The notes under the pieces: generated by a model
Databases searched by the model: none
Seen by the model: only the letters and a program-made list of their open reading frames with translations
What the model was told of the DNA's origin: nothing
Program-made: the position numbers and the translations under genes
IMG/VR virus record: IMGVR_UViG_3300047160_007939
Coordinates: 32,001-96,000 of that record
DNA length: 64,000 nt
Direction: 5' to 3' (one strand)
Source of the DNA: a virus
Shown: piece after piece, positions 6,101 to 45,356 of the stretch
How positions within the stretch are numbered: position 1 is the first letter of the stretch
Layout of the letters: each line of letters starts with the position of its first letter

Positions 6101-7929
6101 AGGTCGCCGCCGGCAGCTCCCGTTGGCGTTCGGCTGTCGGAGAGCCGGCTGTCATTGCCGATGCAGAGCGTTGTGCCTGTTGTCCCAGCGAGAAGGGCGG
6201 AAGCCTGGGCCACAGACAGATCAGCAGGAGCCGCCGCCGCGCCGGTGTTGTTCCCTTTGATCGTAAGAGCCGGCGCATTCGCCAGCTTCGCGTTCGTGAC
6301 TGCGCCTGCGGCCACCACCGGGTTGGGGTAGGTCCCACCCAGGTCGCCGCCCGCATTACCGGATGGCGCGCGGCTGTCCGAGAGCCTCGTATCGTTCCCC
6401 TGACAGACGGTGTTGCCGCCCACGCCGTAGGTGACTTCCTCCCAACCGGTGTTACCGGGGTTTCGCTTCAGGAAGCCGCTGCCCATATTCGCCGGCAAGC
6501 CGGATCCGCCCAGCCCACCCACGGTCGGGTTGGGGTACGTGCCGGCGAGGTCCCCGCCGGCAGCCCCGGTCGGTGGACCCCCGCTCCCGAAGCGCGGGTC
6601 GTTGCCCGCTGCCAGCGTGCCGGCAGTCGTGCCGGTGAGCATCGTCGCGGTCTGGGCGATGGTGAGGTCGGAAGGAGCGGCAGCTACCCCGGTGTTGTTG
6701 CCCTTCAGGGTGTTGGCCGGGCTGTTGGCGTGCTTCGCGTTGGTGATCGCTCCCACTGCCACGGTCGGGTTCGGGTAGGTTCCCGCGAGGTCGCCACCCG
6801 CAGCCCCGGTGGGAGGTCCCCCCGAACCAAACCGTGGATCGTTTCCCGCTGCCAGCGTGCCGGCTGTAGAGCCTGCCAGCATTCCGGCTACCTGGGAAAC
6901 GGTGAGGTCCTGGGGAGCTGCCGCCGAAGCCGTCGAGTTTCCTTTCAGCGTGGTGGCCGGAGAGTTGGCGTGCTTCGCGTTGGTGATCGCGCCGTTCGCC
7001 ACGGTGGGATTGGGGTACGTCCCGGTGAGGTCGCCGCCGGCAGCGCCGCTCGGTGGTCCACCCTGGCCGAAGCGCGCGTCGTTCCCTGCCGCGAGCGTCC
7101 CTGCCGTCGTCCCCGCGAGAAGAGCGGCAGCCTGGGCCACCGTAAGATCGGTGGGAGATGCCACGCCTGCCGTCGCGTTACCTTTGATCGTGCCTGCCGG
7201 AGCCGTCGCCAGCTTGCCGTTGGTCACCACCCCGCTGCCGAGGGTCGGGTTGGGGTACGTCCCGGTCAAGTCTCCGCCTGCGTTCCCAGATGGAGCGCGG
7301 CTGTCCGAGAGCCGGGCGTCGTTCCCCTGCGCGACGGTGTTGGCCGCGTTGCCGTATCCCACTTCCTCCCACCCGGTCCCACCGGCGTTCCGCTTCAGGA
7401 AGCCGTTGTTGACGCTCGCCGGCAGCACCCCGCCCTGCAAGCCGGTGACGGTGGGACCGGGAAAGTTGCCGCCGAGGTCACCGGAAGCCGGCCCGGTGGG
7501 AGGCACGGGAGGCAGGTTGGCGTAGTTCGTCGCGCTGATGGTCCCGAGGATGGTGACGTTGCCCTGGAAGGTGCTCGCGCCGCCGGAAGGCGCAATGATA
7601 GCGTTACCATTGGCATCGGCGGAGAACTCCGCGTAGTGGGTCCCGTCCCTGGTGAGGCGAAGCTGGGGATCCGCGCCGTCGATGACTTCGAGCGCCCTGG
7701 CGGGAGCCTGGGTCGCCGGTACGTTGATGCCGGTCTTGCCGCCGAGGGGGATGACGCGCAGGTTGCCTGCCGCGTCTACGTTCAGGTCGGAGTAGTGCGC
7801 GGCATCGTGCATCAGCCGCGCCTGGGGCAGCGCGCCATCCGTGATCTTCAGCCCGCCGGAGAAGACGTTCGTCCCATCCAGCTCCTGAAGCATCTGGCTG
7901 GTGCGCGATCGTACAGAGGGAACAGCCAT
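130..7929 (-). CDS. giant repeat-containing virion/tail-fibre-like protein (2599 aa)
   Basis: 18 copies of a GG(D/S)LxGxYPNP-anchored 70-80 aa repeat, PQLRL beta-repeats and a long poly-Gly C-terminal region; located downstream of the portal. Confidence 0.75.
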   Translation of the reverse strand: MAVPSVRSRTSQMLQELDGTNVFSGGLKITDGALPQARLMHDAAHYSDLNVDAAGNLRVIPLGGKTGINVPATQAPARALEVIDGADPQLRLTRDGTHYAEFSADANGNAIIAPSGGASTFQGNVTILGTISATNYANLPPVPPTGPASGDLGGNFPGPTVTGLQGGVLPASVNNGFLKRNAGGTGWEEVGYGNAANTVAQGNDARLSDSRAPSGNAGGDLTGTYPNPTLGSGVVTNGKLATAPAGTIKGNATAGVASPTDLTVAQAAALLAGTTAGTLAAGNDARFGQGGPPSGAAGGDLTGTYPNPTVANGAITNAKHANSPATTLKGNSTASAAAPQDLTVSQVAGMLAGSTAGTLAAGNDPRFGSGGPPTGAAGGDLAGTYPNPTVAVGAITNAKHANSPANTLKGNNTGVAAAPSDLTIAQTATMLTGTTAGTLAAGNDPRFGSGGPPTGAAGGDLAGTYPNPTVGGLGGSGLPANMGSGFLKRNPGNTGWEEVTYGVGGNTVCQGNDTRLSDSRAPSGNAGGDLGGTYPNPVVAAGAVTNAKLANAPALTIKGNNTGAAAAPADLSVAQASALLAGTTGTTLCIGNDSRLSDSRTPTGAAGGDLTGAYPNPTVRGLQGSNLPAIVAGGFLKVNAAGTAWEEVTYGTAANTVAQGNDSRLSDSRTPTGSAGGDLSGSYPNPVIASNAVTNAKAAQMAAGTLKGNNTAGLANALDLTVAQAAAMLSGTTSTTLCIGNDSRLSDSRAPTGAAGGSLSGTYPNPVIAAGVVTNAMHANSPALSVKGNNTGAAAAPVDMTVAQTANLLAGTTAGTLAAGNDPRFGGGGPPSGAASGDLAGAYPGPTVAGLGGSALPVNAANGFLKRNSGNTGWEEAAYGSVANTVCQGNDSRLSDSRAPSGAAGGDLSGTYPNPTVASGAITNAKLANAAANSLKGNNTGAAAVPLDLTSAQVSAMLQGTTGTSLCVGNDARLSDSRNPTGNAGGSLSGTYPNPVIAAGVVTNAMHANSPANSLKGNNTGVPVAPVDLSISQVANLLGGTTANTLAFGNDARFGAPSPPNGVAGGDLTGTYPNPTVTAGAITNAKLANAAGYSLKGNNAAVAGVPADLTVTQVSALLAGNTGTTLCVGNDARLSDSRIPMGAAGGDLGGTYPNPTVNAGAITNAKLATAPATTIKGNSTAGVASPTDLSTATVAGMLAGTTATTLCVGNDSRLSDSRNPTGAAGGSLTGTYPNPTIAAGVVTNAMHASSPATTLKGNNSASAGAPLDLTVAQTTTMLAGTTGSTLCVGNDSRLSDSRTPTGAAGGDLTGTYPNPTISAGSVGNAKLATMAASTLKGNLTGGIASPTDLTVAQVSGMLSGTTGSTLCIGNDSRLSDSRNPTGPAGGMLTGTYPNPSIAAGVVTNAMLVNAPANTMKGNNTSGSAAVVDLTVSQIATLLKGQVAGTLAAGDDSRFTAGLPPSGAAGGDLSGIYPNPTVAKLGGNPLPSNIANGFLKVNAANTGWEEVPYGNTADTVCQGNDPRFTAGTDLALSGHLLVGNTPLSGSPPARGEFVDTAAPQLRLTNGVHYTELKLDANTMLSIGAAAGPGNTWMMGHVACGGLPTGFATMSSGPALQAQGGGTAGTPAFRVNNTTDVSYLDFIANNSGKAQVNSVGTGSTPGALGINLTPNQGVLEVGGQGVGGNPQLVLDYDTTAAQRLSFQVDSSGNGVVNATSGKLGVNMPPASAPVTVPTRALEVLDSTGNPQARLTYDATHNTDLYTGSSGMLRILPSGGMVGINTTGVPARALEVVDAVNPQLRLSQAAGTQYADLSVSQYGQLVLYPISGGVAINLASGAGTPPALRIEALNPADVATTPATTQQDYLRLNNALTGRGGNTSIATTGIGGIGGQVYVIQAAGGQALYATTASTGGGGGPFSWTAGTGGAAQVAGTGTNTGGLGGNWQAYGGTGGAASGASSGTNTGGAGGQIMLYGGIGGAASLGSGVLVGGNGGNVTMSGGTAGTGNSTGQTNIGGMCYLRGGAPAAGTVGSAGGGIDARAAGGSTTGSGGAGGGLILFCGDAGGDGSVPRGGGSIQIKCGIGVGNVASAALYITGGGAGPRAETGTVVANSGAPITFWGSQAGTAPNADVSSTGGPAGGWVFTPAVGGVATVAGTGANIGGVGSAWSAAGGAGGAATGATSGNNTGGAGGSFSGTTGVGGAANNNTGNAQGGAGGAFVWTGGAGGAASTAGTGNNTGGGSGGWTLTIGKGGAASGATSGNNNAGGGGAVLITAGAGGDQSNGTGAQQVAGNGGAITLTAGAGGVGGVTGGGTGGLATLQGGPAGVGGTGSGGAGGGASLLGRAGSSVASGGAGGTVTITAGAAGGDGSVVRAGGAIPITCGNSVGGSVGGAGSFIGGAGGVNSGTNVGSAGGALTFTAGAGGGGGAAVTGAIGGAVNITAGAGGAGSTTNGNGANVLIRGGLAGAGAGTAGAKGSIILNDNGGWVGVGNATPAMMLHVQETAAITTSPADGYASALTLRPGYSAAAAQTVTRHNYIDLEAPTPLTNVTITDAAIFRFNQAAGTHPALGAASTKATPGTVQGWLKVNVNNTIMYAPLYTSMTA

Positions 7930-18952: not shown

Positions 18953-19145
18953 ACGGACGAGGATGGATATGGGAGCGCCAGCGAATAGTCCTGTTCCTGG
19001 CCTAGCATCTGCGCTCTCACGGCACGGGGCCGAGTTGCGTCCACCCTTCGTCAGTGGAGACGGCTCCTGGCTACCGGCGCGACCCACCTACACCCAGCAC
19101 AGGCGGAAGGTGAGAGATGTCCGGTACGGAAGTGCTGTCCGTATC

Positions 19146-24233: not shown

Positions 24234-24935
24234 TCAAGCGTCGAGCACCGCGTCTATCGCGGCCAGCAGGTCATCGTAGCGGCCCGCCGAAGCCAGTCGG
24301 CTGCCGTCCGCGAAGTCGTAGACAAAGGTATCCCGATTGGCTTCCCGCAGCGCGCCGCGCGCTGCCGTCAGGTGCTCGCGCAGAACGTCGTGGCTGGGCC
24401 AGCGGGTTGAGAGCGTCGGCCCGCTCCCCCACGGGATGCGCTCACCGGGCGGCACGAGGTCGAAGCTCTGGCTCTCCACCACACACTCGAAGCTGCCGTT
24501 ATGCCAGCCACGGGTCTGACGGTTCACCACGATCAGGTCTTCGGGCATCGCCGACGCCACCTCGCAGCCCGTCTCCGGCCCACGTAGAGATACCTGGAAC
24601 CCGGTTCGCGCGTGTAGGAACAGCTCGGGACTGAAGGCCACGATCCGCCACGGCTGCGGGTAGTTGGTCCAGTTGTGGGTCCAGTAAAGCGCGCCCGCTT
24701 CCATCCCATCCGGCAGCGGCCTACTGCCGAGATTGATCGGCTCTTCCCACGTCTTTCGCAGGGCAAGCCGGAACTCTTCGAGCTGCTCGGGTGTCCACGT
24801 TGCGCTTTTCAGCGTCAACACGCCCAGCGGCGGCACAGCCGGCCTGCCGGCCCGATGGATGCCGAGATAGGCCAGGGGCGCTGTCAGCACGCCCAGAATG
24901 GCTCCCAGCACACTTCTACGGTTGGTCTGTTCCAT
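24234..24935 (-). CDS. hypothetical protein with twin-arginine-like N-terminus
   Basis: MEQTNRRSVLGAILGVLTAPLAYLG; begins just after TIGR array 2. Confidence 0.55.
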   Translation of the reverse strand: MEQTNRRSVLGAILGVLTAPLAYLGIHRAGRPAVPPLGVLTLKSATWTPEQLEEFRLALRKTWEEPINLGSRPLPDGMEAGALYWTHNWTNYPQPWRIVAFSPELFLHARTGFQVSLRGPETGCEVASAMPEDLIVVNRQTRGWHNGSFECVVESQSFDLVPPGERIPWGSGPTLSTRWPSHDVLREHLTAARGALREANRDTFVYDFADGSRLASAGRYDDLLAAIDAVLDA

Positions 24936-24948
24936 CGCTCTATACTCT

Positions 24949-25357
24949 CGGTTCTCTCGCGCGAAACGGCTCACTCCTACTCGTCGGTTCTCTTGACGAT
25001 TGCGGCTCCGCTCCTACGGCTCGGTTCACTCCCAATGGACGGCTCGCTCCCAATGGACGGCTCGCTCCCAATGGACGGCTCTCTCCAGTACCTCGGCTCG
25101 CTCACGCGGCCCGGTTCTCTCTCTCCGCAGACGGCTCGCTCTCGATCTTCGGTTCTCTAGTACGGGTCGGCTCGCTGCGCTCATTCGGTTCTCACGCGCC
25201 ATTCGGCTCCGCTAGGCTCTCTCGGTTCTCTCACCCCCACTGGCTCGCGCATAAGGTGCGGTTCTCTCCACCGACACCGGCTTGCTCACGACGTTCGGTT
25301 CCCTCCACTTCAGCGGCTCGCTTCTTCCACGCGGTTCACTCTTTAGCAACGGCTCAC
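24949..25357 (-). repeat. TIGR-like dual-repeat array 2 (longest, ~23 repeats)
   Basis: Alternating AGAGAACCG/AGCGAGCCG (minus reading) with mostly 9-nt spacers; starts at the terminase stop codon. Confidence 0.9.
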
Positions 25358-28300
25358 AGGATGACACCCCCACGGCCACGGAGCTTGCCGATCTTACCGA
25401 GTGTATCACCCACTACACTATACTCCGGTCGCGGGTCGTTCTCGTGATCCTTCCCCGTCATCTCCCTGCCGGCGAGGAACATCTGGTGATCGGCACGGTC
25501 GGTCCCCAGGTAGCTGATGTCCCCCACGTTGGCGTAGTAGGTCGCCGAGAGCTGCCACGCGATCATCTCGGCATCGCAGAGGTCTTTGGCTCCCTTTCCC
25601 CCATAGGCTGATGTAGCAGGGTGGTCGATCTTCCGGTTGTTGATGAGCTGCACCTCGCGGAGCTGGTTCCTGGCCCGCTCGTGCTGGGGGTAGCCCGGCT
25701 TTGCGGGGAGCAGCCAGAGCAGGTTGTTGTTCAGCAGCGTCTTACCGTTCCGGTACATCCCGAGCTGCTCCGGATTGGACATGTCTTTGGCATCGCAGGG
25801 GATGCCCCACGATCGTACTTCCTGGATGATGCTCTCCGCCTGCCAGCGGTCGAACTTCATACCACCGACACTGGCCCCGCCTGCTTGAACGACATCCACG
25901 AGCTGGCGGAGCACATCTCGCACGTTGCCGAAGTCCACGGCCAACCGGTTCCGTTTGTCGGGCTTCCACTCCAGGAGTAGATCCTCAACAACGACCGCAC
26001 GTCGCTGCTCTTCAATGATGTCGTTGCCGAGGAGGTCTTTCGCGTAGACGGGCGTTCCGTCGTCTTCGAGGCGTAGAACCTTCGGGGCGGCGATCTTCTG
26101 GCCCGTCTCTTCAGCCAGCCCCCAGAACTGGTCCTCATTCGCATTCGGAACTCTCCCGCAGTGGTCACAGCGCCACATCGACGGCTCCCACGGCTTCTTC
26201 CTGAAGAGCGGCTGCTTCTTCGGGTCACTGCTTCGCGGGATCTTCCTGGGCCGGTAATGCTTCGCGTAGCGGCGCTGCCGGATCAGCCAGCACGCCGGGC
26301 AGCACTTCCCACCCTCTTCGCTGGGGACGATGTGCGAGATACAAAGGGCGAAGCTGTCCTGCTCCAGCCCCGCGTCCCCACCCACGAAGTAGATGATGCC
26401 CGGCCTGATACGCCAGTCCGAGAGAAGGAGCGCCACGTAGCGGTGCGTCTGCTGGTCCGAGGTGAGGTGCTCGGTAACCGTGTTCTCCACCTGCGCCATC
26501 GGCTCGATCATCGCCCGCCTGCCGGCTGTCGCCGCTTCCTCGATCTTCTCCGGCTGGGAGATGAACGCGCCCTCGGCTGCCGGCGGGTTCGTCTCGTAGA
26601 CTGCTTCGTAGAGGTCCGGGTCGTCGCGCTTCACCTGCGCCATCACCGGATCGGCTGCGTGCCACTCGCCGAGATAGTAGACCTTCTGCCAGTCGCGCCA
26701 GGGAATGACGATGCGCGTCGGAGCACGGTCGCCCCACCACTCGGGCGTGGCCCCGCCGAGGTTCTCACACTGCCGCAAGCCTCCCAGGATGAAGCCGTTC
26801 AGGGCGCGCGGCCAGGAAATGACGAAGCCCCACTGGAACGCGCCGAAGCGGTTACTGGTACGGAGCGTGTTGAAGCACGCCGTTGCCGCATCGTGGCCTT
26901 CGGCATCGCGGAGCGCATCCGCTTCATCCAGCACCCAGCCGAGGGTGTTCTTGCCTTCCGCGCTCTCGTTCTTCGAGTTCAGCGAGTGGACGCGCACGCA
27001 GGGAACCCGGTAGTCGTAGCCGGGCATCAGCTTCCAGAACTGCGTGACGTTGGCCTGGATGTCGCCTCGCGGCCCACGGTCGATCAAACCATCGAAGCAG
27101 GGCTTGCCGATGTGCCGAACGAAGCGGTCGTAGAAGTTGGACTTCGCGGCCCGAGCGTCCTGGGCCATGTTGATGAAGTCGAAGTAGTCGCCGTTGGCGT
27201 GCCGGAAGTGGACCCACGGATTGACCATCTGCTGGATCACCCACGCCGCATAAGCGTAGATCCAGGATACGAGGGTGTCTTTGCCCGAGTTGGCGTGTAA
27301 CGTGCCCCCGGCATCGAAGTAACAGTGTGTCCCACCCACGGTGAGGCTGTAGAAGTCCGCTACCCTGGTTGGCTCGATGGCGGTTATCTTGCTATACTTG
27401 GTGTATGCCAGTCCCACTAGACCACGAACTTCGCGCCCGTATCGTCGCCCTCTATGCCGAGGGGAAAAGCTCCCCCGAGATAGGCCGCATCGTAGGCAAG
27501 CACGCAGAGACGGTGCGCTATCACCTCCGAGGAGCCGGCGTGCGCGTCCGCACGAAGTCGGAAGCGAAGCTTCTGCTCGGACCCCGCCCACTGCCAACCC
27601 CCGTTGAAGTGATCGTCCAGGCTTACGAAGAGGGCTGGCCGCTAACCGCGCTATCCGCCGCGTTCGGCATCGCCGAAGAGACACTACGCCGACATCTCCA
27701 TCGAGCCGAACTAAAGATGCGAGCGCGGGGCCATGTTCCGGGCCGCTACGCGCCGCAGATCGAAGAGGCAGGCGACTACGTGTCTGTGACGCGCCGCGAT
27801 CACCCTCTTGCGGACGCAAATGGACAGGTGATGGCACATCGGCTGGTAATGGAAGCGCACCTGGGGCGCTTCCTGACGGCTGAAGAGGTCGTCCACCACG
27901 AGAACGGCATCCGAGACGACAACCGGATCGAGAACTTACGCCTCTTCCCCAGCGACCGAGAACACGCTCTTCATCACTGGCAAGAGTGGAAGACGCGACA
28001 ACTATCTCGTCCCCCACTTCCAGATCCACCAGCTTCTGCCAGCCAGCCGGCGAAAGAAAGCGATGCTCTCCCGTCACCTCGCTCTCCCGGCCATCCGCCA
28101 GCGTAACGCGATAGAGCTGGGCCGTGCCCTTCCGATAAACGGGTGACGCCTGCCGGTAAACGACGCGCTCCCCATCCCACGACCGCACCAGAAGCGGCGT
28201 GCCCAACTGCGCCCACTCCCCCATCGTGCGCGTAATTCCCGTGACCGCCGTGCTATAATCAGTCAGAAGACTTGTCTTTGATGTGCAACCTTTGCCCCAG

Positions 28301-28617
28301 CACAGCCACGCCACGTTGACGTGCCTCGGCCTGACGTACCAATCCGAGGCGTGCAGGCCGATGGACTGCTCTAGCGCCCACTCTTGCCGGGGGGTAAGCG
28401 GCGGATCGCCGAGGTACTGCGGGGAGGTGACGAACTCCGGCAAGCTGGGAATGTGCATCCCCACCGGCCACGGCCACTGCCGGAATGCCTTTCTCAGCAT
28501 CTGCCGGCCAGCCGGCAGCGATGCCTCGCGGATGACGCTTGAGAGCGCGCCGCGCCGGATCGCCTCTTCTTTCATCTGCCGGCGCAGGTCTTCGAGCTGC
28601 GCTTCCGAGACGGGCAT
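25354..28617 (-). CDS. terminase large subunit, intein-containing
   Basis: Split Walker A GKG|SGKDT, Walker B VLDEAD, RNase H-like GGDAG...DSFA, FDRWQ and KIDHP...KDLCDA motifs. Confidence 0.9.
27390..27404 (+). promoter_or_regulatory. extended -10 promoter for a leaderless antisense HNH mRNA
   Basis: TGcTATACT 6 nt upstream of ATG 27405. Confidence 0.55.
27405..28106 (+). CDS. HTH-HNH homing endonuclease encoded antisense within the intein
   Basis: Two HTH-like repeats, then HRLVME.HLGR.L...EVVHH.NG.RDDNR.ENL. Confidence 0.88.
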
Positions 28618-28673: not shown

Positions 28674-28778
28674 CTACCTGCCAGCCGGCTGGCCGGCCTG
28701 CTGCATCGCCCAGACGAAGAGGGCAAGCCCCCACGCCCAGACTACGAAGCAGCCCAGCACGACGTAGAACGCCTTCAC
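28674..28778 (-). CDS. small membrane peptide (34 aa)
   Basis: GTGA overlap; hydrophobic VVLGCFVVWAWGLALFVW. Confidence 0.4.
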   Translation of the reverse strand: MKAFYVVLGCFVVWAWGLALFVWAMQQAGQPAGR

Positions 28779-30214
28779 GACGCTCCCACCGGCCCGTTGC
28801 GGTATCCCGCGCTGATGTCAGAGAGCATCGCCCTGATCGTCTCGGTGTCGTCCGCGAACCGCTGGCGCTGTCTTTCGGCTTCGGCTTCCAGCTCTCCGAT
28901 GCGCGCCTTCAGCCGGTCGTTCTCCGCCGCTATCTCTTTGGACGCCTCGTTGACCGCCTCAAGCGCGCCCCAGAGACGCACGCGCGGGTCCATCCCACCG
29001 ATGAGCAGCAGCTCTCCGTGGCCGTTCCCTTCGTCCAACACGACGACGGACGTGTTGGCTTCCTCATCGTCGTGCCACTCCTCGGCTCGCTCTTCCTCCG
29101 GCTCTGTCTCATCCCAACCTGTGTTGGCAGGCGCGAAGACATCGCTCACGTCTACCGCTGCCAGTTCTTCCTCGGTCGGCGGCTCGAACTGGCGCTCGCT
29201 GTCAACGGTTCTCTCGATAGTAGCGGCTTGCTCGTGGATGTCGGTTCTCTCATCGTGGTCGGCTCGCTCGTCGGGGTCGGTTCTCTCCGGTCGGACGGCT
29301 CGCTCTTGCGGCTCGGTTCTCTCCACTGCACCGGCTCGCTCATCTGATACGGTTCCCTCGTCTACGACGGCTCCCAGAGCCTGCTGTGCCAGTTGGGTGG
29401 ACAGGTCAGGGAGCGGGGCAAGCCCACACATCACCAGCGGATCGACGTTGAGTGCCGCCGACACCTGCTTCAACCGCTTCTGGCCGCAGCCGGTGTAGCG
29501 GCCATTCTCCCAACAGTCGAGGCTGGCTTTGTTGATGCCGCTGATGTCGGCCAACCCCCAACGGGTCAGGCCGGCTCGCTCTCGCAGCTCGCGGAGCACG
29601 TCGCCGTCAACGTGCTCCAGGTCCTTCGGGGGTCCACGGTGGGCTGCCGGCTTGCTGGCCGGCTCGGGCAACACGGCGGCTGCGCCGTTCGGCTGGGGAG
29701 GCGCGGCATCCACCTCCTGAAGATACTCCACGTTGGTCTTCAGCACGCTCGCCAGCTTCGCCCACCGGTCGGGCATCGGGGTATACAGCCCCTTCTCCCA
29801 ACAGCGGATGACTTCCGGCGAGACGCTCATCCGGCTCGCCACCTCACGCCGCTCCATCCCGGCATCCTTCCTCGCCTGGATGATCCGGTCAGGGTTCAGC
29901 GGCGGCACAGGCGAAGGGTCTTCCGTCGCACCCGTGCAGTAGTCCACGGACACGTCCAGGAGCTTGGCGACCTTCACCAGCATCCCGGTACGCATACTCC
30001 GCTCGTGCGTCTCCCATCGCTCAACCTGGGTCGCCATCCCGCTACTGTGGCCCAGCCTGCCGGCAAGCTGGGCGCGGGACCATCCCTTCTTCTGCCGGGC
30101 GTTGGTCATCCGCTCCGGCAGCGTTCGCAGTGTCGTCAGCAGCTCGGCGCGCGTGCCCGCCTGGGAAGGCGTGGGCGCGGGCCGGCCTGCGGCCTGGCCT
30201 GCGGCCTGGGTCAT
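28775..30214 (-). CDS. triple XRE-type HTH protein with array-derived linker and coiled-coil tail
   Basis: Three HTH_3 units (ARQKKGWSRAQLA, ARKDAGMERREVA, LRERAGLTRWGLA); AAAGGAG RBS. Confidence 0.85.
   Translation of the reverse strand: MTQAAGQAAGRPAPTPSQAGTRAELLTTLRTLPERMTNARQKKGWSRAQLAGRLGHSSGMATQVERWETHERSMRTGMLVKVAKLLDVSVDYCTGATEDPSPVPPLNPDRIIQARKDAGMERREVASRMSVSPEVIRCWEKGLYTPMPDRWAKLASVLKTNVEYLQEVDAAPPQPNGAAAVLPEPASKPAAHRGPPKDLEHVDGDVLRELRERAGLTRWGLADISGINKASLDCWENGRYTGCGQKRLKQVSAALNVDPLVMCGLAPLPDLSTQLAQQALGAVVDEGTVSDERAGAVERTEPQERAVRPERTDPDERADHDERTDIHEQAATIERTVDSERQFEPPTEEELAAVDVSDVFAPANTGWDETEPEEERAEEWHDDEEANTSVVVLDEGNGHGELLLIGGMDPRVRLWGALEAVNEASKEIAAENDRLKARIGELEAEAERQRQRFADDTETIRAMLSDISAGYRNGPVGAS
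29206..29374 (-). repeat. TIGR-like dual-repeat array 3 (in-frame inside the HTH gene)
   Basis: 10 alternating repeats, all with 9-nt spacers; translated as ER(A/T)xxx repeats. Confidence 0.88.
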
Positions 30215-31676: not shown

Positions 31677-32448
31677 CCCCGTCGTTCTCCTTTCCTTCGT
31701 CGTCCGTCTCCACTACGGCCTGCGCTTCGATGACCTCGGGTGGGCCATTCCTCGCGGCAAGCCGCTTCTCTTCCAGCTCGACTTCCCCGAGGAACTGCTT
31801 CAGGAAGCCGTCAATCGCCCTGTCCAGCAGCTCTTCCCCGATCACCTCTGCCGGCGCGGTGTCCGGGTTCAGCGTACCGATGCTTGGTCCCGCCGCCAGC
31901 CCTGCCACGGCTCCCGTCTGTACCAGCACCGTCTGCTGCATCGGCATCGCTGCCGGCTGGCCGGCTCCGACCTTCGGCGGGACCACCGGCCAGCCTACCA
32001 GCGGTGCGATGATCGTGGTGAACTCCTTCAACATCGCTATCCCACGCTCAAGATCCGAGAGCGTCAGCTTCGCGTTCTCGTCTCCCCACTCCCGCCGGAA
32101 CAATCCGAAGAGCCTCTCCTGCACGTCGCGGGCCATCACCACGCTGTCCGCGACCAGCAGCTCCCGCTCCACCGCAGCTTTTCTGCCCCGCTCTTCCGTC
32201 TCCTTCACGTCGGCATCGACGGCCTTCTGCTGCATCCAGGCATCGTAAGCCGCCGCTCTCGCCGACCAGTCGTTGTGGCTCTGCCACTCGTAGAGCGAGC
32301 TTTTCGCGTTCTTGCTCCACTTTTCCGCCACTTTTGCTATGCTTCGCCTCGGTCCTAACTCCAGGTAACGCCGGAAGGCTTCGTAGGCTCTCTGGCTCTC
32401 GTGGCTTTGTTTCTCCCACGCCGCTGGGATGTCGGATGCTTCGCTCAT
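31666..32448 (-). CDS. terminase small subunit-like protein
   Basis: WE.Q..ES.RAYEAF..Y..LG..RS..KVA...W....W..RA.AYD motif. Confidence 0.7.
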   Translation of the reverse strand: MSEASDIPAAWEKQSHESQRAYEAFRRYLELGPRRSIAKVAEKWSKNAKSSLYEWQSHNDWSARAAAYDAWMQQKAVDADVKETEERGRKAAVERELLVADSVVMARDVQERLFGLFRREWGDENAKLTLSDLERGIAMLKEFTTIIAPLVGWPVVPPKVGAGQPAAMPMQQTVLVQTGAVAGLAAGPSIGTLNPDTAPAEVIGEELLDRAIDGFLKQFLGEVELEEKRLAARNGPPEVIEAQAVVETDDEGKENDGDEG

Positions 32449-32660
32449 AGGGTTCGGTTCCCTCGTACTTCCCGGCTTCGCTCGTCCGCTACGGTTCTCT
32501 AGCCCGCTATCGGCTCACTGCTCTGGCCCGGTTCTCTCGCGCTTCACGGCTCGCTCTTATTCTTCGGTTCTCGCAGCAACTTCGGCTCGCTCCCACGTTT
32601 CGGTTCTCTCGCGGAAGGTGGCTCGCTCCCGCTGCCCGGTTCTCTCTTCAGCGCCGGCTT
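32438..32660 (-). repeat. TIGR-like dual-repeat array 4 (upstream of terS)
   Basis: ~12 alternating repeats with 9-10-nt spacers; the terS ATG lies in the last spacer. Confidence 0.88.
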
Positions 32661-32661
32661 C

Positions 32662-33006
32662 CTATCGCCTGTTAAGTAAGCCCGATACCAGCACCCGCGC
32701 TGTCCACTCCTCTCCCATCACGAAGGAAAGCGCCTTCTCGAAGAGCGCGAGGTGCTGGCCTTCATCCACGATGGCAAAGAGGTGCGCGCTCTCCTCGTCA
32801 GGAAAGCGCAGGTAGAGACGCTTGTCCTTTACCCGCTCGGGTTTCACGTCGTACTTCGTCAGGATGTTGACCGCCGCCTGCCCACCCAGCCGCCGCAGCA
32901 CTTCCAGCACGCGCCGGCCACTCGCCTGGATGCGCTGGATGTCTTCCGCGTCCCCCACCGGCTGATCCTCAACCGGCGTGAGAGTGATGCCGACCAGCCG
33001 GCTCAT
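32662..33006 (-). CDS. hypothetical protein, weakly resembling the DnaX (gamma/tau) C-terminal domain
   Basis: P......LYLRF......H..........FEKALSFVMG....V pattern. Confidence 0.4.
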   Translation of the reverse strand: MSRLVGITLTPVEDQPVGDAEDIQRIQASGRRVLEVLRRLGGQAAVNILTKYDVKPERVKDKRLYLRFPDEESAHLFAIVDEGQHLALFEKALSFVMGEEWTARVLVSGLLNRR

Positions 33007-33376
33007 CTGCCGCGCTACCCGCCGGCTCCGGCCTACCTGCCGTCTGTCTACTCGTATCAGTGCCGTGTTCTCCTTTCAGCCGCGCCACTTCTTCCCGCAG
33101 TGCGGCAATCTCGTCCCCGATGGCTGCCACCTTCACTGCCTCTTTGTGCGACCTTCGGAGCGGTCCCAGGATACGGCGCAGCGCGCCCGTGAACTGCTCC
33201 GAAGTCCAGGGCTTGCCCGCTTTGGCGTGCCGCTCCGCCATCGTAATCATCGGCCAGAGCATCGCGTCGGTCCACTCCAGGGCTTCCTGGAGCCGCTGCC
33301 GCTCGGCTTCGCTGGCTTCCAGGCCCGCTCGAAGCCCGCTGATCGTAAGCCGCGAGGCGTCGATCACCCGCGTCAC
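32969..33376 (-). CDS. hypothetical coiled-coil protein
   Basis: GTGA overlap with the methyltransferase stop. Confidence 0.5.
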   Translation of the reverse strand: MTRVIDASRLTISGLRAGLEASEAERQRLQEALEWTDAMLWPMITMAERHAKAGKPWTSEQFTGALRRILGPLRRSHKEAVKVAAIGDEIAALREEVARLKGEHGTDTSRQTAGRPEPAGSAADEPAGRHHSHAG

Positions 33377-34119
33377 CGGCGCAGTTCCCCCACCACGAGG
33401 TACGAGTGGTTCTTCCTCGCCGTCTTCTGGAAGTCGTAGCGCATCGCCGGAACCGTCTCTTGCACCAGCACCAGGATGTCCACAATCCTGAAGCCGAAGA
33501 GTTCCAGGAGCTGGATCACCTCGCAGTGGGTCAACCGCTGCCGGTTGCTCTCTATCTCGTCCTGACACTTGACCAGTACCTTTCCGCCAATCACCAGGAT
33601 GCGCGCCGCCGAAAGTAACCCCGCCCCGTAGAGGCGAATGATACTTTCGTGGCTCTCGTTCTCGTTCAGGTAGCATTTATTGATCGACTGCTTGACCGTC
33701 TGCCCGCCGTGCATATAAGGCGGATCGAAGAGCACGGCATCGAAGTAGCGGCTCTCGCAGCAGTCCAGCCAGCGAAAATCCGCTTCTACTACATCGTAAT
33801 CGTCTGCTTTAACAGGATGAAGGTCGAACTTCTCCAGCAGGTAGTCCCGCTCGTCCAGCTCCTTCCACCACACCCCGCGACCGTAGGTGATGTCCGCGAC
33901 CTTCGTACCCTTTGCGACATACAGCTCGAAGGCGTCCGCAATCAGTCTCGCGTTCCCACCCACCCTCGCGGTAAGTACCGGGCCGGCCTGCCTGCCATTC
34001 CTTCCGGCTGGCAGGTCAGGCTGGACCGGCTCTGCTTCCTCTCCCCGGTTCTCTACACCCCTAACGGCTTGCTCTGCCACAGCGGTTCTCTCGTCGCCAA
34101 CGGCTCGCTGCCGGCACAC
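33373..34119 (-). CDS. amino DNA methyltransferase (DPPY); start uncertain, within array 5
   Basis: VADITYGRG motif I, FDAVLFDPPY, KCQD, ARKNHSY. Confidence 0.8.
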   Translation of the reverse strand: MCRQRAVGDERTAVAEQAVRGVENRGEEAEPVQPDLPAGRNGRQAGPVLTARVGGNARLIADAFELYVAKGTKVADITYGRGVWWKELDERDYLLEKFDLHPVKADDYDVVEADFRWLDCCESRYFDAVLFDPPYMHGGQTVKQSINKCYLNENESHESIIRLYGAGLLSAARILVIGGKVLVKCQDEIESNRQRLTHCEVIQLLELFGFRIVDILVLVQETVPAMRYDFQKTARKNHSYLVVGELRR

Positions 34120-34181
34120 GGTTCTCTCTGATGGTTCGGCTCGCTCACGGACATCGGTTCTCTCGATCTACGCGGCTTGGT
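34027..34181 (-). repeat. TIGR-like dual-repeat array 5 (directly downstream of the Tas gene)
   Basis: 9 alternating repeats with 9-10-nt spacers; the Tas stop codon lies in the first spacer. Confidence 0.9.
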
Positions 34182-35334
34182 CACCCCGTCGCCGGTGCTC
34201 CCTCGCTTCCCGCAGGCCGGGGAAGAAGTGCTCGTTCGGCGGCGGGATGTAGTCGATGTGCCCCAGGATCCCGATCACGTAAGGAGCTGGCGTCGGCGTC
34301 TTGAACCTCTCCCAGAACATCACCTCATGAAGATGCGAGAGGAAGAGCTTCACCGCGTACCGGCGTGCCCGAAGATCGATCCGGCCATCCGGCAGCCGGC
34401 CCTCTTCGTAAACGCGCTTCGTCGCCGTGTCCCGGCTCCAGTCCTTCTCGGCCAGCGTGCGCTGGGCAGTCTCGGCAAAGCGGCCTGCCGCGTTCCTCTC
34501 CATCTCCAGCTCCTTCCGCTGCTCGTAGACTTTCCCGTAGAAGCAGTCGGGCCAGTTGTGGAACTTCACGAAGCAGTCGCCTGCCTTCCAGCAGAGGGTC
34601 TTGAAGCCGTCGTGGTAAGGCCGGCGGGCAAGAGCTGCCGCCACGTTCTCCCTGGAGAGCTTCCGCTGCTTCCCGTCCTTATCCGTCTCGGCAAAGCGCA
34701 GCACGGTCGCCGGGTTCAGGCCGGCGTGCGGGCACGCCCGGCGTACCACCTCTTTCCAGTAGGCATCGCCGTCTTGCCCCCGCTTCTTTCCGTGCCCCTC
34801 GCGCTCCATCTCGCCGATCACGCGCGCCAGCACCACCGCGCCGTCCTTCTTGCCCAGCCAACGCTGGGTCGGGTCCAGGCCGGCGTGCCGCCAGATGTCG
34901 CCCACCGTGCTCGCTCGCTCGATGTCGATGTAGGCCATCAGCCCCGCGCTGATCACCGGTCCCACTCCTCGTTGGCTCTTCAGCCACCGGCCCACCGGCT
35001 GCCCATCCGTCCAGATGTCGAGCATCGTCTTCACCTGATGCTCCTGGCGCATATCCTGGCCGGCCAGCCACTTGATGAGCGTGCAGGGTTCGCCCGATGC
35101 CTCCAGCGCACGTACCTGGTTGCAGGCTGTCGCGCGCAGGTGCTGCATCGCGTAGTAATAGTCCACGAGGTAGCGCACCTCGCGGGGCTGAAGCGCGATA
35201 CCCGCTTCCTTCAGGTCCCTCTTCAGCTTGTCGAGGGGAAGCAGCATAGCCACCCACTCGGGATCGAGGCTTGCCCGCACCGCCGGGTCATCCAGATCCG
35301 GCGGCTCCTCAAACGGTCTTCGCTCGTCACTCAC
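34168..35334 (-). CDS. Nop-domain RNA-binding protein, TasA-like (IS110 C-terminal homologue, no RuvC/HNH)
   Basis: YY.MQ..R....NQ coiled coil; WL.S.RGVGPV.SA.L...IDI......IWR.AGL; K.LCWK....FVK; Y...Y..RK..E; RARRYAVKLFL.H; P.PY....LGH...I.PP; flanked by arrays. Confidence 0.85.
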   Translation of the reverse strand: MSDERRPFEEPPDLDDPAVRASLDPEWVAMLLPLDKLKRDLKEAGIALQPREVRYLVDYYYAMQHLRATACNQVRALEASGEPCTLIKWLAGQDMRQEHQVKTMLDIWTDGQPVGRWLKSQRGVGPVISAGLMAYIDIERASTVGDIWRHAGLDPTQRWLGKKDGAVVLARVIGEMEREGHGKKRGQDGDAYWKEVVRRACPHAGLNPATVLRFAETDKDGKQRKLSRENVAAALARRPYHDGFKTLCWKAGDCFVKFHNWPDCFYGKVYEQRKELEMERNAAGRFAETAQRTLAEKDWSRDTATKRVYEEGRLPDGRIDLRARRYAVKLFLSHLHEVMFWERFKTPTPAPYVIGILGHIDYIPPPNEHFFPGLREAREHRRRGDQAA

Positions 35335-35385
35335 GGTCTATTCTCCTTTCATCACAGTCCGAACAATCTCGGCGCTCCAGTCATT

Positions 35386-35559
35386 CAGTTCTCTATTACA
35401 CCACGGCTCGCTACTCGTGGACGGTTCTCTCGTCGCCTGCGGCTCGCTCGAAGGCATCGGTTCTCTCGTAATCGTCGGCTCCGCTCCGATTAAGCGGTTC
35501 TCTCCATCCGGGCGGCTCGCTCGTAGCGTCTCGGTTCACTCCACAACAACGGCTTTCGC
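35386..35559 (-). repeat. TIGR-like dual-repeat array 6 (directly upstream of the Tas gene)
   Basis: 10 alternating repeats with 9-10-nt spacers. Confidence 0.9.
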
Positions 35560-36390
35560 GGCTTCCAGGTAGTCTTCGACAATCTCGAAGCCCACGAAGT
35601 CCAATCCCAGGCTGACGGCAGCAGCTCCGGCGTGCCCGATGCCGAGGAACGGGTCGAGTACGGTCTTCACCCGCTCCCTGCCGTGGAGCAGGATGCACTT
35701 CCTCGCCAGCTCGGTCGGGAAGGTGGCCGGGTGCGGACGCTGCCCGGCCCGGCTCTTGATCGTCTTGTAGGGTACGAACCAGACGTTCCCACGGCAGCGC
35801 CGGTCCACCCCACCGGGCTTTGCCCAGCGGGTCACGTTGCTCTTGTCCTGGTAGGGCACGCCCACGGCCAGCCGGTCCAGCGGCACGTCCCCCCGCTTCG
35901 TGAAGTGGAAGACGTACTCGTGGCAGTCGGAGAGGAAGCGCGGGCTGCTGATCGGCTTCAGGTGACCTATGGCTATATCACCTGTGATCCCAGGATAATC
36001 GCCCACGTCCTTCTTCTCGATGGCGATGCTCTTCACCCAATGGATGACATTCTGGAGTTCCAGGTGCTTCCCCACCACCATCGACACCAGGAACGGGACC
36101 CACGGATCGGTCGGCTTGCTTCCCAGCACCAGAAAGAGCGAACCATTCGGCGCAAGCACCTCATTCGTTGCCCTCGCCCACCGGTCCATCCACTCCAGGT
36201 ACTCGCCTCGCGGCCCACGGTCATCGTAGCCGCTGTACTCCACGCCGATGTTATAGGGCGGCGAGGTCACCACCACGTCCACGCTGCCGGGGTCCAGCCG
36301 GCGGCGCATCCCTTCCACGCAATCCTCGTGGAAGAGACGCACCCACGACCGGCCTACCCGCGCTTCATACGCGGGCCGCTCTAGGGTCAC
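35536..36390 (-). CDS. beta-class N4-cytosine/N6-adenine DNA methyltransferase; start uncertain, within array 7
   Basis: VVTSPPYN, HPATFP, VLDPFLGIG. Confidence 0.88.
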   Translation of the reverse strand: MTLERPAYEARVGRSWVRLFHEDCVEGMRRRLDPGSVDVVVTSPPYNIGVEYSGYDDRGPRGEYLEWMDRWARATNEVLAPNGSLFLVLGSKPTDPWVPFLVSMVVGKHLELQNVIHWVKSIAIEKKDVGDYPGITGDIAIGHLKPISSPRFLSDCHEYVFHFTKRGDVPLDRLAVGVPYQDKSNVTRWAKPGGVDRRCRGNVWFVPYKTIKSRAGQRPHPATFPTELARKCILLHGRERVKTVLDPFLGIGHAGAAAVSLGLDFVGFEIVEDYLEAAKAVVVE

Positions 36391-36652
36391 GGTTCTCTGC
36401 TGTATCACGGCTAGCTCGGTTGACACGGTTCTCTCTGATAACACGGCTCGCTTCTCTGTCTCGGTTCACTCGCTATGGCCGGCTTCGCTCGCGCGTGACG
36501 GTTCGCTTCGCTGACGTGGCTCGCTCCCACTTAACGGTTCCCTCTGGAACAACGGCTCGCTCGTACCGAACGGTTCTCTCGTGGTTTGCGGCTCGCTCAT
36601 GTACGGCGGTTCTCTATCTGATTGCGGCTCCGCTCCTACTGCACGGTTCTCT
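36372..36652 (-). repeat. TIGR-like dual-repeat array 7
   Basis: 16 alternating repeats with 9-nt spacers. Confidence 0.9.
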
Positions 36653-37042
36653 CTCTCTCTCGCCCTCCGGCTCCGGCAAGCCCAACCTGCGCCGGATCAC
36701 CTGCTTCTCAATCTCCATCCTGGCTTGGCAGGGTGGACACTGCCGGCAGTCTTCCGGTATCCACAGGTCGGGCCGCTCGATGAACTGGACCTTATGGCCG
36801 GGATTGCGACACGCCTTCGCGCTCTCCAGTGTCTCGGGAATGCCGCGCGACTTCAGGACCTCCACCGGCCCGCCGGCCAGCCCGCCGGGAAGGTTCTGCC
36901 AGCCAGCCGGCAAGCCGGCTTTCTCTGCCTCGGTCAAAGCCCTATGTAAGCAGAGGGTGATGTTCATTCGGAACAACCGCTCGCGCTCCAGGTCACCGAC
37001 ACCTGCGAGTGTTCGGGCCAGATGACGCTCGCCGCTCTCCAT
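36614..37042 (-). CDS. hypothetical protein; 3' end runs into array 7
   Basis: GGAGG RBS; C..HKVQF...C..C..C. Confidence 0.55.
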   Translation of the reverse strand: MESGERHLARTLAGVGDLERERLFRMNITLCLHRALTEAEKAGLPAGWQNLPGGLAGGPVEVLKSRGIPETLESAKACRNPGHKVQFIERPDLWIPEDCRQCPPCQARMEIEKQVIRRRLGLPEPEGEREREPCSRSGAAIR

Positions 37043-44558: not shown

Positions 44559-45356
44559 TTATACCACGGCCATACGCCTCCTGGCAAGCTCTACATAGTC
44601 GAAGTTCAGGTCCCCGCCGAGGTAGCTCCTTCCCATCTCTCTTGCCACGTAGGGCACGGTCCCACTTCCCATCATCGGGTCCAGCACCACGTCTCCCGGC
44701 TCGCTGAACATCTCGATGAGCCTGCCGGCCAGCCGGTCGGGAAACGTAGCTGGGTGACGCATCTTCAGCGGGTTCGCCTCGGTATTGCTCGGCGGGATCT
44801 TCCAGACCGTGCCGCTGCACTTCAGCGCGTTGACACGCTTTCTCTTGATCGGCTTCATCGTCCCCGCCGTCGTCCGCACCGTGCCGCTGAAGTAGCGGCC
44901 AGCGTGCTTGCTCGGCGTGCTCTTGTCCTTCTTGAAGACCCTCGGCGGGCCGCTGTCATTGTTCACGAAGACCAGCACGTACTCGTGGTCGGGCCTGGGG
45001 CAGTCCCGATACCAGGGTCCATCCCGTCCATCACGCTGGTATATCAGCGTGGTGAACAGCCGCCAGCCCTTTGCCAGCCAGCCGGCAGCCAGCCGGAAGC
45101 TGTCGCCGGTCTGCGCGTGGTCGATGCGCTGGTCCTGGATGACGACGCAGGCGATACCGCTGTCCACCGTGGCGAAGCGGAGCAGCCCGCCAAGTTCCAC
45201 CAGCTCCTCCAGGCTGGCATTACAGCCGTCACGGATCGTGCCGTAGTTCGGGGAGAAGACCGTGAGGTGGACCGACCGCTCGGGCAGCCGGCCCACCAGC
45301 TCACGGCAGTCTTCGCAGGACAGCTCGCCGGTGAGAGTTACCACCGGTCCCACCAT
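44559..45356 (-). CDS. beta-class DNA methyltransferase with variant catalytic motif (FSPNY)
   Basis: HEYVLVF, HPATFP, GDVVLDPMMGSGT. Confidence 0.8.
   Translation of the reverse strand: MVGPVVTLTGELSCEDCRELVGRLPERSVHLTVFSPNYGTIRDGCNASLEELVELGGLLRFATVDSGIACVVIQDQRIDHAQTGDSFRLAAGWLAKGWRLFTTLIYQRDGRDGPWYRDCPRPDHEYVLVFVNNDSGPPRVFKKDKSTPSKHAGRYFSGTVRTTAGTMKPIKRKRVNALKCSGTVWKIPPSNTEANPLKMRHPATFPDRLAGRLIEMFSEPGDVVLDPMMGSGTVPYVAREMGRSYLGGDLNFDYVELARRRMAVV

Follow-up and report, generated by a model that had tools for sequence, protein, structure and literature searches.

The tasA gene and its repeat arrays

We analyzed a stretch of 64,000 nucleotides (nt), called the window below, which corresponds to bases 32001-96000 of the 119,514-bp IMG/VR virus record IMGVR_UViG_3300047160_007939. 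It contains a locus of the TIGR-Tas family, made up of the gene tasA, which codes for a nuclease-free Tas protein, and seven arrays of alternating short repeats (TIGR arrays). An earlier note, made from the sequence alone, had described 34027-36652 as such a gene with its flanking arrays. The arrays do flank the gene, but the same stretch also holds the gene of a methyltransferase of 302 amino acids (aa), and four more arrays lie elsewhere. The components of the locus, in window positions, are the following.

12715-12827, minus strand: TIGR array 1, three loop repeats, in frame within the primase gene 12042-13097
24935-25358, minus strand: TIGR array 2, ten loop repeats and one hybrid, after the stop codon of a 1087-aa open reading frame (ORF); holds an 18-nt triplication
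29193-29376, minus strand: TIGR array 3, five loop repeats, in frame within a 479-aa ORF (28775-30214) for a regulator with multiple helix-turn-helix (HTH) domains
32437-32663, minus strand: TIGR array 4, six loop repeats; its 3'-truncated edge repeat supplies the initial codons of terS, which codes for the small terminase subunit (phrog_6299, E 7e-19)
34027-34181, minus strand: TIGR array 5, four loop repeats, directly downstream of tasA; its 5'-truncated edge repeat overlaps the tasA stop codon
34168-35334, minus strand: tasA, nuclease-free Tas protein of 388 aa, in which a coiled coil and a Nop domain follow a short disordered N-terminus (ORF, phrog_4285, PDB sequence matches, AlphaFold2, Foldseek and VIA-align)
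35368-35558, minus strand: TIGR array 6, five loop repeats, directly upstream of tasA; its first loop repeat contains the stop codon of a methyltransferase gene
36376-36673, minus strand: TIGR array 7, seven loop repeats and one loop/edge hybrid, with an irregular first spacer of 15 nt

The tasA ORF is intact, with 388 codons, a GTG start and a Shine-Dalgarno-like AAGGAG 8 nt upstream. Its product matched phrog_4285, a "transposase" family (E 1.4e-31), and a single Pfam family, PF02371 (IS110 C-terminal), the latter at a borderline score (21.8 bits vs a cut-off of 21.3). All of the motifs that the earlier note had read in the protein (GVGPV, W..AGL, RARRYAVKLFL and PY...LGH) are in the translation. 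Among solved structures, the best match by sequence was TaTasR (PDB 9mty), with E 2.6e-10 for the single sequence and 2.3e-22 for a profile of 20 sequences; in the profile search it was followed by TasH (E 3.8e-9), and then by the IS621 and ISCro4 recombinases. An AlphaFold2 model built from the 20-sequence alignment had a predicted local distance difference test score (pLDDT) of 90.0 and a predicted template modelling score of 0.84. All ten best Foldseek matches of this model were TasH or TasR chains, including all eight with E <= 0.001, and structural alignment with VIA-align gave the following values, where rmsd is the root-mean-square deviation.

TasH (9w04_B): Z 20.0, 227 residues aligned, rmsd 3.4, 20% identity
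TaTasR (9mty_B): Z 18.5, 193 residues aligned, rmsd 2.3, 25% identity
ISCro4 and IS621: Z 13.4-13.8, 176-177 residues aligned, rmsd 3.2
Archaeal Nop5 (1nt2_B): Z 7.9, 144 residues aligned, rmsd 3.4, from Nop5 residue 84

The TasH and TasR chains scored 20.0, 19.7, 19.2, 18.9 and 18.5, with the next family at 13.8. Profile and structure thus agree with the Nop/Tas fold that the earlier note had proposed. The alignments span residues 46-370 of the TasA model, starting at model residue 46-49, and in the partners they begin after the nuclease domains, from residue 64 in TasH (HNH) and from residue 111 in TasR (RuvC). Neither an HNH nor a RuvC domain was found in TasA by Pfam or by structure, and only about 45 residues precede the coiled coil. 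Therefore, the product of 34168-35334 is a nuclease-free TasA of the TIGR-Tas family, of the dual-repeat type, and the earlier statement that it has no RuvC or HNH domain holds. For the N-terminal DEDD (RuvC-like) catalytic domain of IS110-type proteins there was likewise no Pfam match in TasA, and IS621 and ISCro4 align only from residue 127. The N-terminal domain with which Nop5 binds fibrillarin is not present in TasA either.

The seven arrays lie between 12715 and 36673 (~24 kb), all on the minus strand and thus in the same sense as the genes. In the RNA sense, two 9-nt repeats, AGAGAACCG and AGCGAGCCG, alternate and are separated by unique spacers of mostly 9 nt, which gives a unit of 36 nt. 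By manual count there are 40 loop repeats (29 of them exact) plus two loop/edge hybrids. Both spacers could be parsed in 41 guide units, of which 36 have 9 + 9 nt; some spacers are 10-11 nt long, and a 10-nt variant of the edge repeat was also seen. All 79 spacers parsed by script differ from each other.

This pattern is far above chance. CGGTTCTCT, with at most one mismatch allowed, had 67 matches in the window, where shuffled sequences averaged 17.4 and never exceeded 27. CGGCTCGCT had 129 (mean 48.8 and maximum 63 in shuffles); the observed number was reached by 0 of 100 shuffles in both cases. In the whole 119,514-bp genome, 71 of the 173 plus-strand repeat hits had a partner at 17-20 or 35-38 nt, as against 0 of 100 hits on the other strand, and these 71 fall in exactly seven clusters, every one inside the window. 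Tandem Repeats Finder reported period-36 rows at six of the seven arrays. Thus, the two alternating repeats, the unique spacers and the 36-nt period that had been noticed on both sides of tasA are present, and the repeat-spacer string given as an example was found at 36579-36535.

The array ends allow the two repeats to be told apart. Six of the seven arrays open with a 5'-truncated AGCGAGCCG 9 nt before the first AGAGAACCG, and the seventh has a truncated copy followed by the 15-nt spacer. At the other end, six arrays finish with AGCG and then unrelated letters, that is, with a 3'-truncated AGCGAGCCG, and one finishes with a full 10-nt variant. In published dual-repeat TIGR arrays it is the edge repeats that are truncated at the array ends (Faure et al. 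2025, PMC12045711). This identifies AGCGAGCCG as the edge repeat and AGAGAACCG as the loop repeat, and the arrays match the published definition of dual-repeat TIGR arrays at both ends, which agrees with how the earlier note had classified them. As in the description of TaTasR, the loop repeat is A-rich at its centre, and one more C-G pair is possible in the edge repeat.

Both repeats start with (G)AG (box D) and end with CCG (box C). In addition, position 9 of the spacer was G in 29 of 36 cases for spacer A and in 28 of 36 for spacer B, so that GAG...CCG is the actual shared motif, which leaves about 8 nt of each spacer free to vary. The ~9-nt spacers of the earlier note are therefore right as parsed lengths for the 36 regular units, though not as the length of the free part or for the longer spacers, and the CCG...GAG box motifs that it had pointed out fit both the conservation within the arrays and the covariation across relatives described below. 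The mature guide is expected to have 36 nt, consisting of the second half of an edge repeat, spacer A, the loop repeat, spacer B and the first half of the next edge repeat.

Two local irregularities were observed within the arrays. In array 2 (25040-25102), an 18-nt unit of edge repeat plus one spacer occurs three times in tandem, and this is the only repeated spacer; the triplication may be a trace of array growth. Arrays 2 and 7 have an exact 20-nt stretch in common (24998-25017 and 36620-36639), which comprises the 10-nt variant edge repeat and 5 nt of spacer on each side, and which suggests a duplication or an exchange between distant arrays.

Relatives, known systems and the Nop-domain insert

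Among 8,000 candidates scored, 1,529 proteins belonged to the TasA protein family with E <= 0.001; for the TIGR-Tas family as a whole, 20,096 tas loci have been catalogued. We compared the window with 46 related loci, 4 viral and 42 from prokaryotic assemblies, the latter mostly metagenome-assembled genomes from soil assigned to Acidobacteriota, Gemmatimonadota, Proteobacteria and others. With a crude detector, which looked for exact 7-mers recurring at 35-37 nt, 36-nt arrays were found in 25 of these loci, always in the same sense as tas. More than one block was present in 15 of the 25, with six blocks in L003 and L005 and five in L004, L007 and L017; thus, splitting the guides into several arrays is common in this clade. 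Most arrays of the related loci lie outside open frames. In 22 consensus rows, including that of the window, we read both repeats of a locus as ending alike, either CCG/CCG or CCA/CCA and never mixed, a covariation that would be expected for a symmetric dimer. Two of the related phage loci (L003:11116-11440 and L004:3636-3990) have several identical spacer pairs in differing order and array position, so that guide units seem to move between arrays as a whole.

A locus of this general kind is already known (Faure et al. 2025). The FpTIGR system of Flavonifractor plautii (PMC12045711) resembles ours, by its published description, in having a solo coiled-coil and Nop-domain protein without nuclease, arrays of two alternating short repeats with ~9-nt spacers, a 36-nt unit and truncated end edges, and a position on a phage with arrays on both sides of tas. 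FpTasA binds 36-nt RNAs (Faure et al. 2025, PMC12045711). Unlike in FpTIGR, the guides in the window are split over seven small arrays in 24 kb, two of which lie inside other genes, without terminators. The variations here are thus the seven dispersed mini-arrays, the two in-frame arrays in the primase and regulator genes, and an insert in the Nop domain.

The best structural match to TasA is SpTasH of Salicola phage CGphi29 (PDB 9w03, 9w04, 21kl and others), which also has a dual-repeat array and in which, as in the candidate pair of TasA, 7 residues separate a Tyr from a His in a flexible C-terminal loop. SpTasH is a DNA-cutting protein with an HNH nuclease at its N-terminus, whereas TasA has about 45 disordered-looking residues in place of this domain, and the repeat sequences differ. 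TaTasR from a Thermoproteota archaeon (PDB 9mty), the best sequence match among solved structures, has repeats that, as here, start with box D and end with box C, with an A-rich loop repeat and an extra pair in the edge repeat; it differs in its active RuvC domain and in its boxes, which are UG and CCA instead of GAG and CCG. On the other hand, MbTasA (Xu et al. 2026 preprint, 10.64898/2026.09.09.750476) is free of a nuclease like TasA and serves as the working model for function here, but it is of the stem-loop type, with hairpin-framed guides and without the Tyr/His loop, whereas the window locus is of the dual-repeat type and retains a candidate for this loop. The earlier note had stated that TasA proteins have no established function, which is now dated, as this September 2026 preprint reports binding of target DNA by MbTasA and a guide-dependent, reversible repression of reporters and of a chromosomal gene. 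Finally, the IS110 bridge-RNA recombinases (IS621, PDB 8wt6; ISCro4, PDB 9t56) have an RNA-binding Nop-like domain in common with TasA. The window system differs from these recombinases in lacking a DEDD/RuvC-like catalytic domain, a single bridge RNA and transposon ends, and in having its guides in arrays.

Two parts of TasA deserve separate description.

34258-34281, minus strand: Y352 to H359, candidate Tyr/His dyad for the processing of pre-tigRNA in a flexible C-terminal loop, with the 7-residue spacing of SpTasH Y289/H296
34615-34866, minus strand: helical insert of about 80 aa (codons 157-240) that separates the GVGPV/AGLDP segment of the Nop domain from the RPY/RPWN helix

In SpTasH, Y289 and H296 are catalytic and process pre-tigRNA (Nucleic Acids Research (NAR) 2026), and the Tyr/His loop has been described as retained in dual-repeat Tas proteins and lacking in stem-loop ones. 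We likened Y352/H359 to this pair by their spacing, independently of any residue-level alignment to SpTasH. H359 was invariant in all 20 aligned sequences, and position 352 was Tyr in 15 of them (manual count). Residues 355-360 had a pLDDT below 50 in the AlphaFold2 model.

The insert had been noticed by the earlier note as an insertion of ~70 aa. It is real and common to a subfamily, but its size is about 80 aa when measured against short homologues of ~275-290 aa. Among 20 hand-picked sequences, it was missing from 10 short homologues and present in the window protein and in nine other long homologues, the latter having a shorter version. In the model of the whole protein it forms four helices, with pLDDT mostly above 90. 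Folded alone, the insert reached a pLDDT of 74 and a best Z of 5.2 (retroviral capsid C-terminal domains, Arc and acyl carrier proteins), which is below a meaningful level for a small helical bundle, and thus pointed to no informative fold. An Atlas search with the insert returned a viral "transposase family" cluster, seemingly the same subfamily, and weak rows. By sequence alignment, the insertion point corresponds to about SpTasH residues 181-198, adjoining K180 and H182, which are listed among the residues around the tigRNA ends (NAR 2026); that the insert might hold the precursor or its flanks is no more than a guess. Dual-repeat Tas proteins were described as keeping a compact Nop core (2026 preprint), so that the insert-bearing subfamily is somewhat atypical. 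For the engineering of compact programmable DNA binders, a TasA of the dual-repeat type that carries an additional helical subdomain may be of interest as well.

Arrays inside genes and the proposed function

Two arrays are embedded in coding sequence. In the primase gene (12042-13097; phrog_47, E 8e-29), array 1 is located in the linker that connects the zinc finger with the TOPRIM domain. Its repeats are read as REP/SEP, and the nearest primase homologue (325 vs 351 aa, 60% identity by BLASTP) is without about 21 of the residues that array 1 encodes. Array 3 lies downstream of the HTH domains of the regulator ORF, where the repeats are read in another frame, as ERT/ERA; 306 open codons precede it and 143 follow, of which the downstream part is acidic and then coiled-coil-like. 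In addition, the first edge repeat of array 5 contains the tasA stop codon, the first loop repeat of array 6 a methyltransferase stop codon, and the last edge repeat of array 4 the terS start codon. No promoter-like signal beyond chance marks the arrays, which are probably parts of long messages.

Arrays inside tas genes have been reported (Xu et al. 2026 preprint, 10.64898/2026.09.09.750476). In the available TIGR texts, we found no arrays inside genes other than tas, no pairing of tigRNA with primase and no dispersed arrays; Faure Table S1 or TIGRSafari may already list this locus together with the arrays embedded in its genes.

By analogy with the characterized relatives, we consider it likely, with good confidence, that the locus is a dual-repeat TIGR-TasA system for RNA-guided DNA binding without cleavage, with about 40 guides whose targets lie outside the phage genome. 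Array transcription, processing, dimerization, DNA binding and repression are here modelled on published relatives. The seven arrays and the genes that they adjoin or sit within would share minus-strand transcripts. A TasA dimer would recognize GAG (box D) and CCG (box C) at the ends of both the edge repeat AGCGAGCCG and the loop repeat AGAGAACCG, and the precursor would be cut in the middle of the edge repeats, probably by the Tyr352/His359 loop of TasA, to give about 40 different 36-nt tigRNAs. By homology, spacer A and spacer B would pair with opposite strands of a site of 16-18 bp. At such a site TasA, which has no nuclease domain, would block transcription or replication instead of cutting, and the targets would lie in the host or in competing mobile elements rather than in the phage's own genome.

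Several results weigh against this proposal. The crude 7-mer detector found no array in 21 of the 46 related loci. At position 352, 5 of the 20 aligned sequences have Phe, so that the Tyr may be non-essential, and TaTasR has Trp at the aligned place. The published repression data come from a stem-loop-type TasA (MbTasA) and not from a dual-repeat one. Between 24000 and 40000, there were 9 terminator-like sites compared with 9.2 expected from shuffles, and none lies directly after an array; a Rho-independent terminator after the array is typical, though not obligatory, in published TIGR arrays. We also searched the phage genome, with arrays masked, for 18-mers built from each guide in both registers. 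No match with two or fewer mismatches was found at gap 0, and the 11 matches with three mismatches compare with about 10-11 for re-paired controls; gaps of 1 or 2 bp were likewise no better than re-paired controls. Nor were spacer words depleted in the phage genome, in which 74 9-nt spacers occur 136 times, compared with 85 times in mononucleotide shuffles and 125 times for reversed strings; given the latter number, the excess over shuffles is compositional. By our own arithmetic, chance matches to an 18-mer are expected in sequence collections of the size of hosts and other phages.

The placement of the arrays could also be explained if they were mainly RNA-processing sites, with TasA acting as a repeat-specific RNase that cuts phage transcripts and thereby sets the levels of primase, HTH regulator, terminase subunits, methyltransferases and tasA, and with the spacers as filler. 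All seven arrays lie on the coding strand at gene junctions or within genes, two of them in frame in the primase and regulator genes; no terminators or promoters of their own stand out, TasA retains the candidate RNA-cutting loop, and no DNA target was found in the phage genome. However, the spacers guide DNA binding in the characterized relatives, and the identical spacer pairs at different array positions in L003 and L004 suggest that spacers are kept rather than drifting. The arrays of relatives are also mostly not within open frames, and the cutting of messages and the making of guides can coexist. We therefore regard RNA processing as the main function as distinctly improbable. A combination of the two is somewhat less unlikely, although still tentative: once TasA accumulates and cuts edge repeats to make guides, it would also sever the messages that hold the arrays, that is, those of primase and the HTH regulator and those in which an array overlaps a start or stop codon (tasA, terS and two methyltransferases). 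Making guides would then also work as a timer or feedback switch, turning off the genes for replication initiation and regulation and uncoupling cistrons that lie next to each other. If true, this would be a regulatory use of TIGR that is not described in the available TIGR literature.

It is extremely doubtful that the system serves RNA-guided DNA methylation, in which, by analogy with the recruitment of fibrillarin by Nop5 in box C/D ribonucleoproteins, TasA would bring one of the two adjacent methyltransferases to sites set by the guides. The gene order of array, methyltransferase, array, tasA, array and methyltransferase would suit such a role, and the Nop5-fibrillarin analogy is discussed in Faure 2025 (PMC12045711). 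Against this, relatives of the first methyltransferase were found near tas in only 1 of the 46 related loci (7 kb from tas) and those of the second in 0 of 46, TasA is without the N-terminal domain by which Nop5 holds fibrillarin, and a third methyltransferase lies 10 kb away, linked to no array. Multiple methyltransferases are common in phages. We also consider it very unlikely that the locus is an inactive relic, or that the repeats are a protein-level repeat or operator-like sites for protein binding, even though degenerate units (hybrid repeats, 10-11-nt spacers and the 18-nt triplication) are present and a homodimer was not confirmed by prediction (score of 0.28 vs a mark of 0.42). The same DNA repeats are read in different frames (REP/SEP and ERT/ERA) and also occur in non-coding stretches with frame-breaking indels, which means that selection acts on the nucleic acid. 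Moreover, the tasA frame is intact with all family-invariant residues present, 29 of the 40 loop repeats are exact, and arrays co-occur with Tas relatives across phyla.

The natural roles and targets of TIGR-Tas systems remain open, and most known loci come from short metagenomic contigs. With a record of 119.5 kb that recurs in many soils, the full gene context of about 40 guides becomes visible. Guides that are interleaved with, or embedded in, essential phage genes lead to the testable idea that guide maturation is coupled to phage gene expression.

The phage and its other genes

The TIGR-Tas locus belongs to a tailed soil phage of about 119.5 kb. The record carries direct terminal repeats, its completeness according to CheckV is ~77%, and PHROG matches to portal, small terminase and, weakly, large terminase confirm a tailed phage. 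Replication functions were matched as well, namely a DNA polymerase, a DnaB-type helicase, a replication initiator and the primase. The minus strand carries nearly all genes from 130 to about 54,500. The genes next to tasA and its arrays include the following.

33373-34119, minus strand: second DNA methyltransferase (phrog_24333, E 2e-32, aligned from residue 44), downstream of array 5; a neighbour and not an established member of the system
35536-36444, minus strand: N6/N4 DNA methyltransferase of 302 aa (PF01555, E 8e-38), between arrays 6 and 7; a neighbour and not an established member of the system

Together with a third one at 44559-45356, the minus strand carries three DNA methyltransferase genes, of which the first two flank tasA and its arrays. 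For the gene at 33373-34119, the listed ORF start lies inside array 5, and the true start is probably after this array.

In soil metagenomes, the phage was present in 24 listed runs from 23 studies, with no RNA run among those listed. In four soil runs (four studies), the contigs across arrays 2, 4, 6 and 7 had the same sequence as the window; this comparison covered 32 of 136 pieces on short contigs, so that spacer turnover is not visible at such depth. One low-depth contig (run X20, depth 2.1) joins 29287 in array 3 to 36534 in array 7 through 25 other letters that resemble spacer, edge and spacer. It may come from a variant array, in a genome without 7.2 kb, or be an assembly chimera through repeats.

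Other features of the window are as follows. A tRNA cluster on the minus strand (17852-18953) consists of five genes, for Lys, Asp, Ile, Trp and one that ARAGORN could not name (odd anticodon loop); an Rfam scan of the window gave four tRNA matches and nothing else. In the 1087-aa ORF (25354-28617, minus strand), the large-terminase match is weak and partial (phrog_17415, E 5e-6, residues 658-763). A 2599-aa ORF (130-7929, minus strand) contains long tandem repeats at 3672-4578 and 6519-7063, with periods of 480 and 240 nt and 73-76% matches, and presumably codes for a tail or fibre protein with repeated domains.

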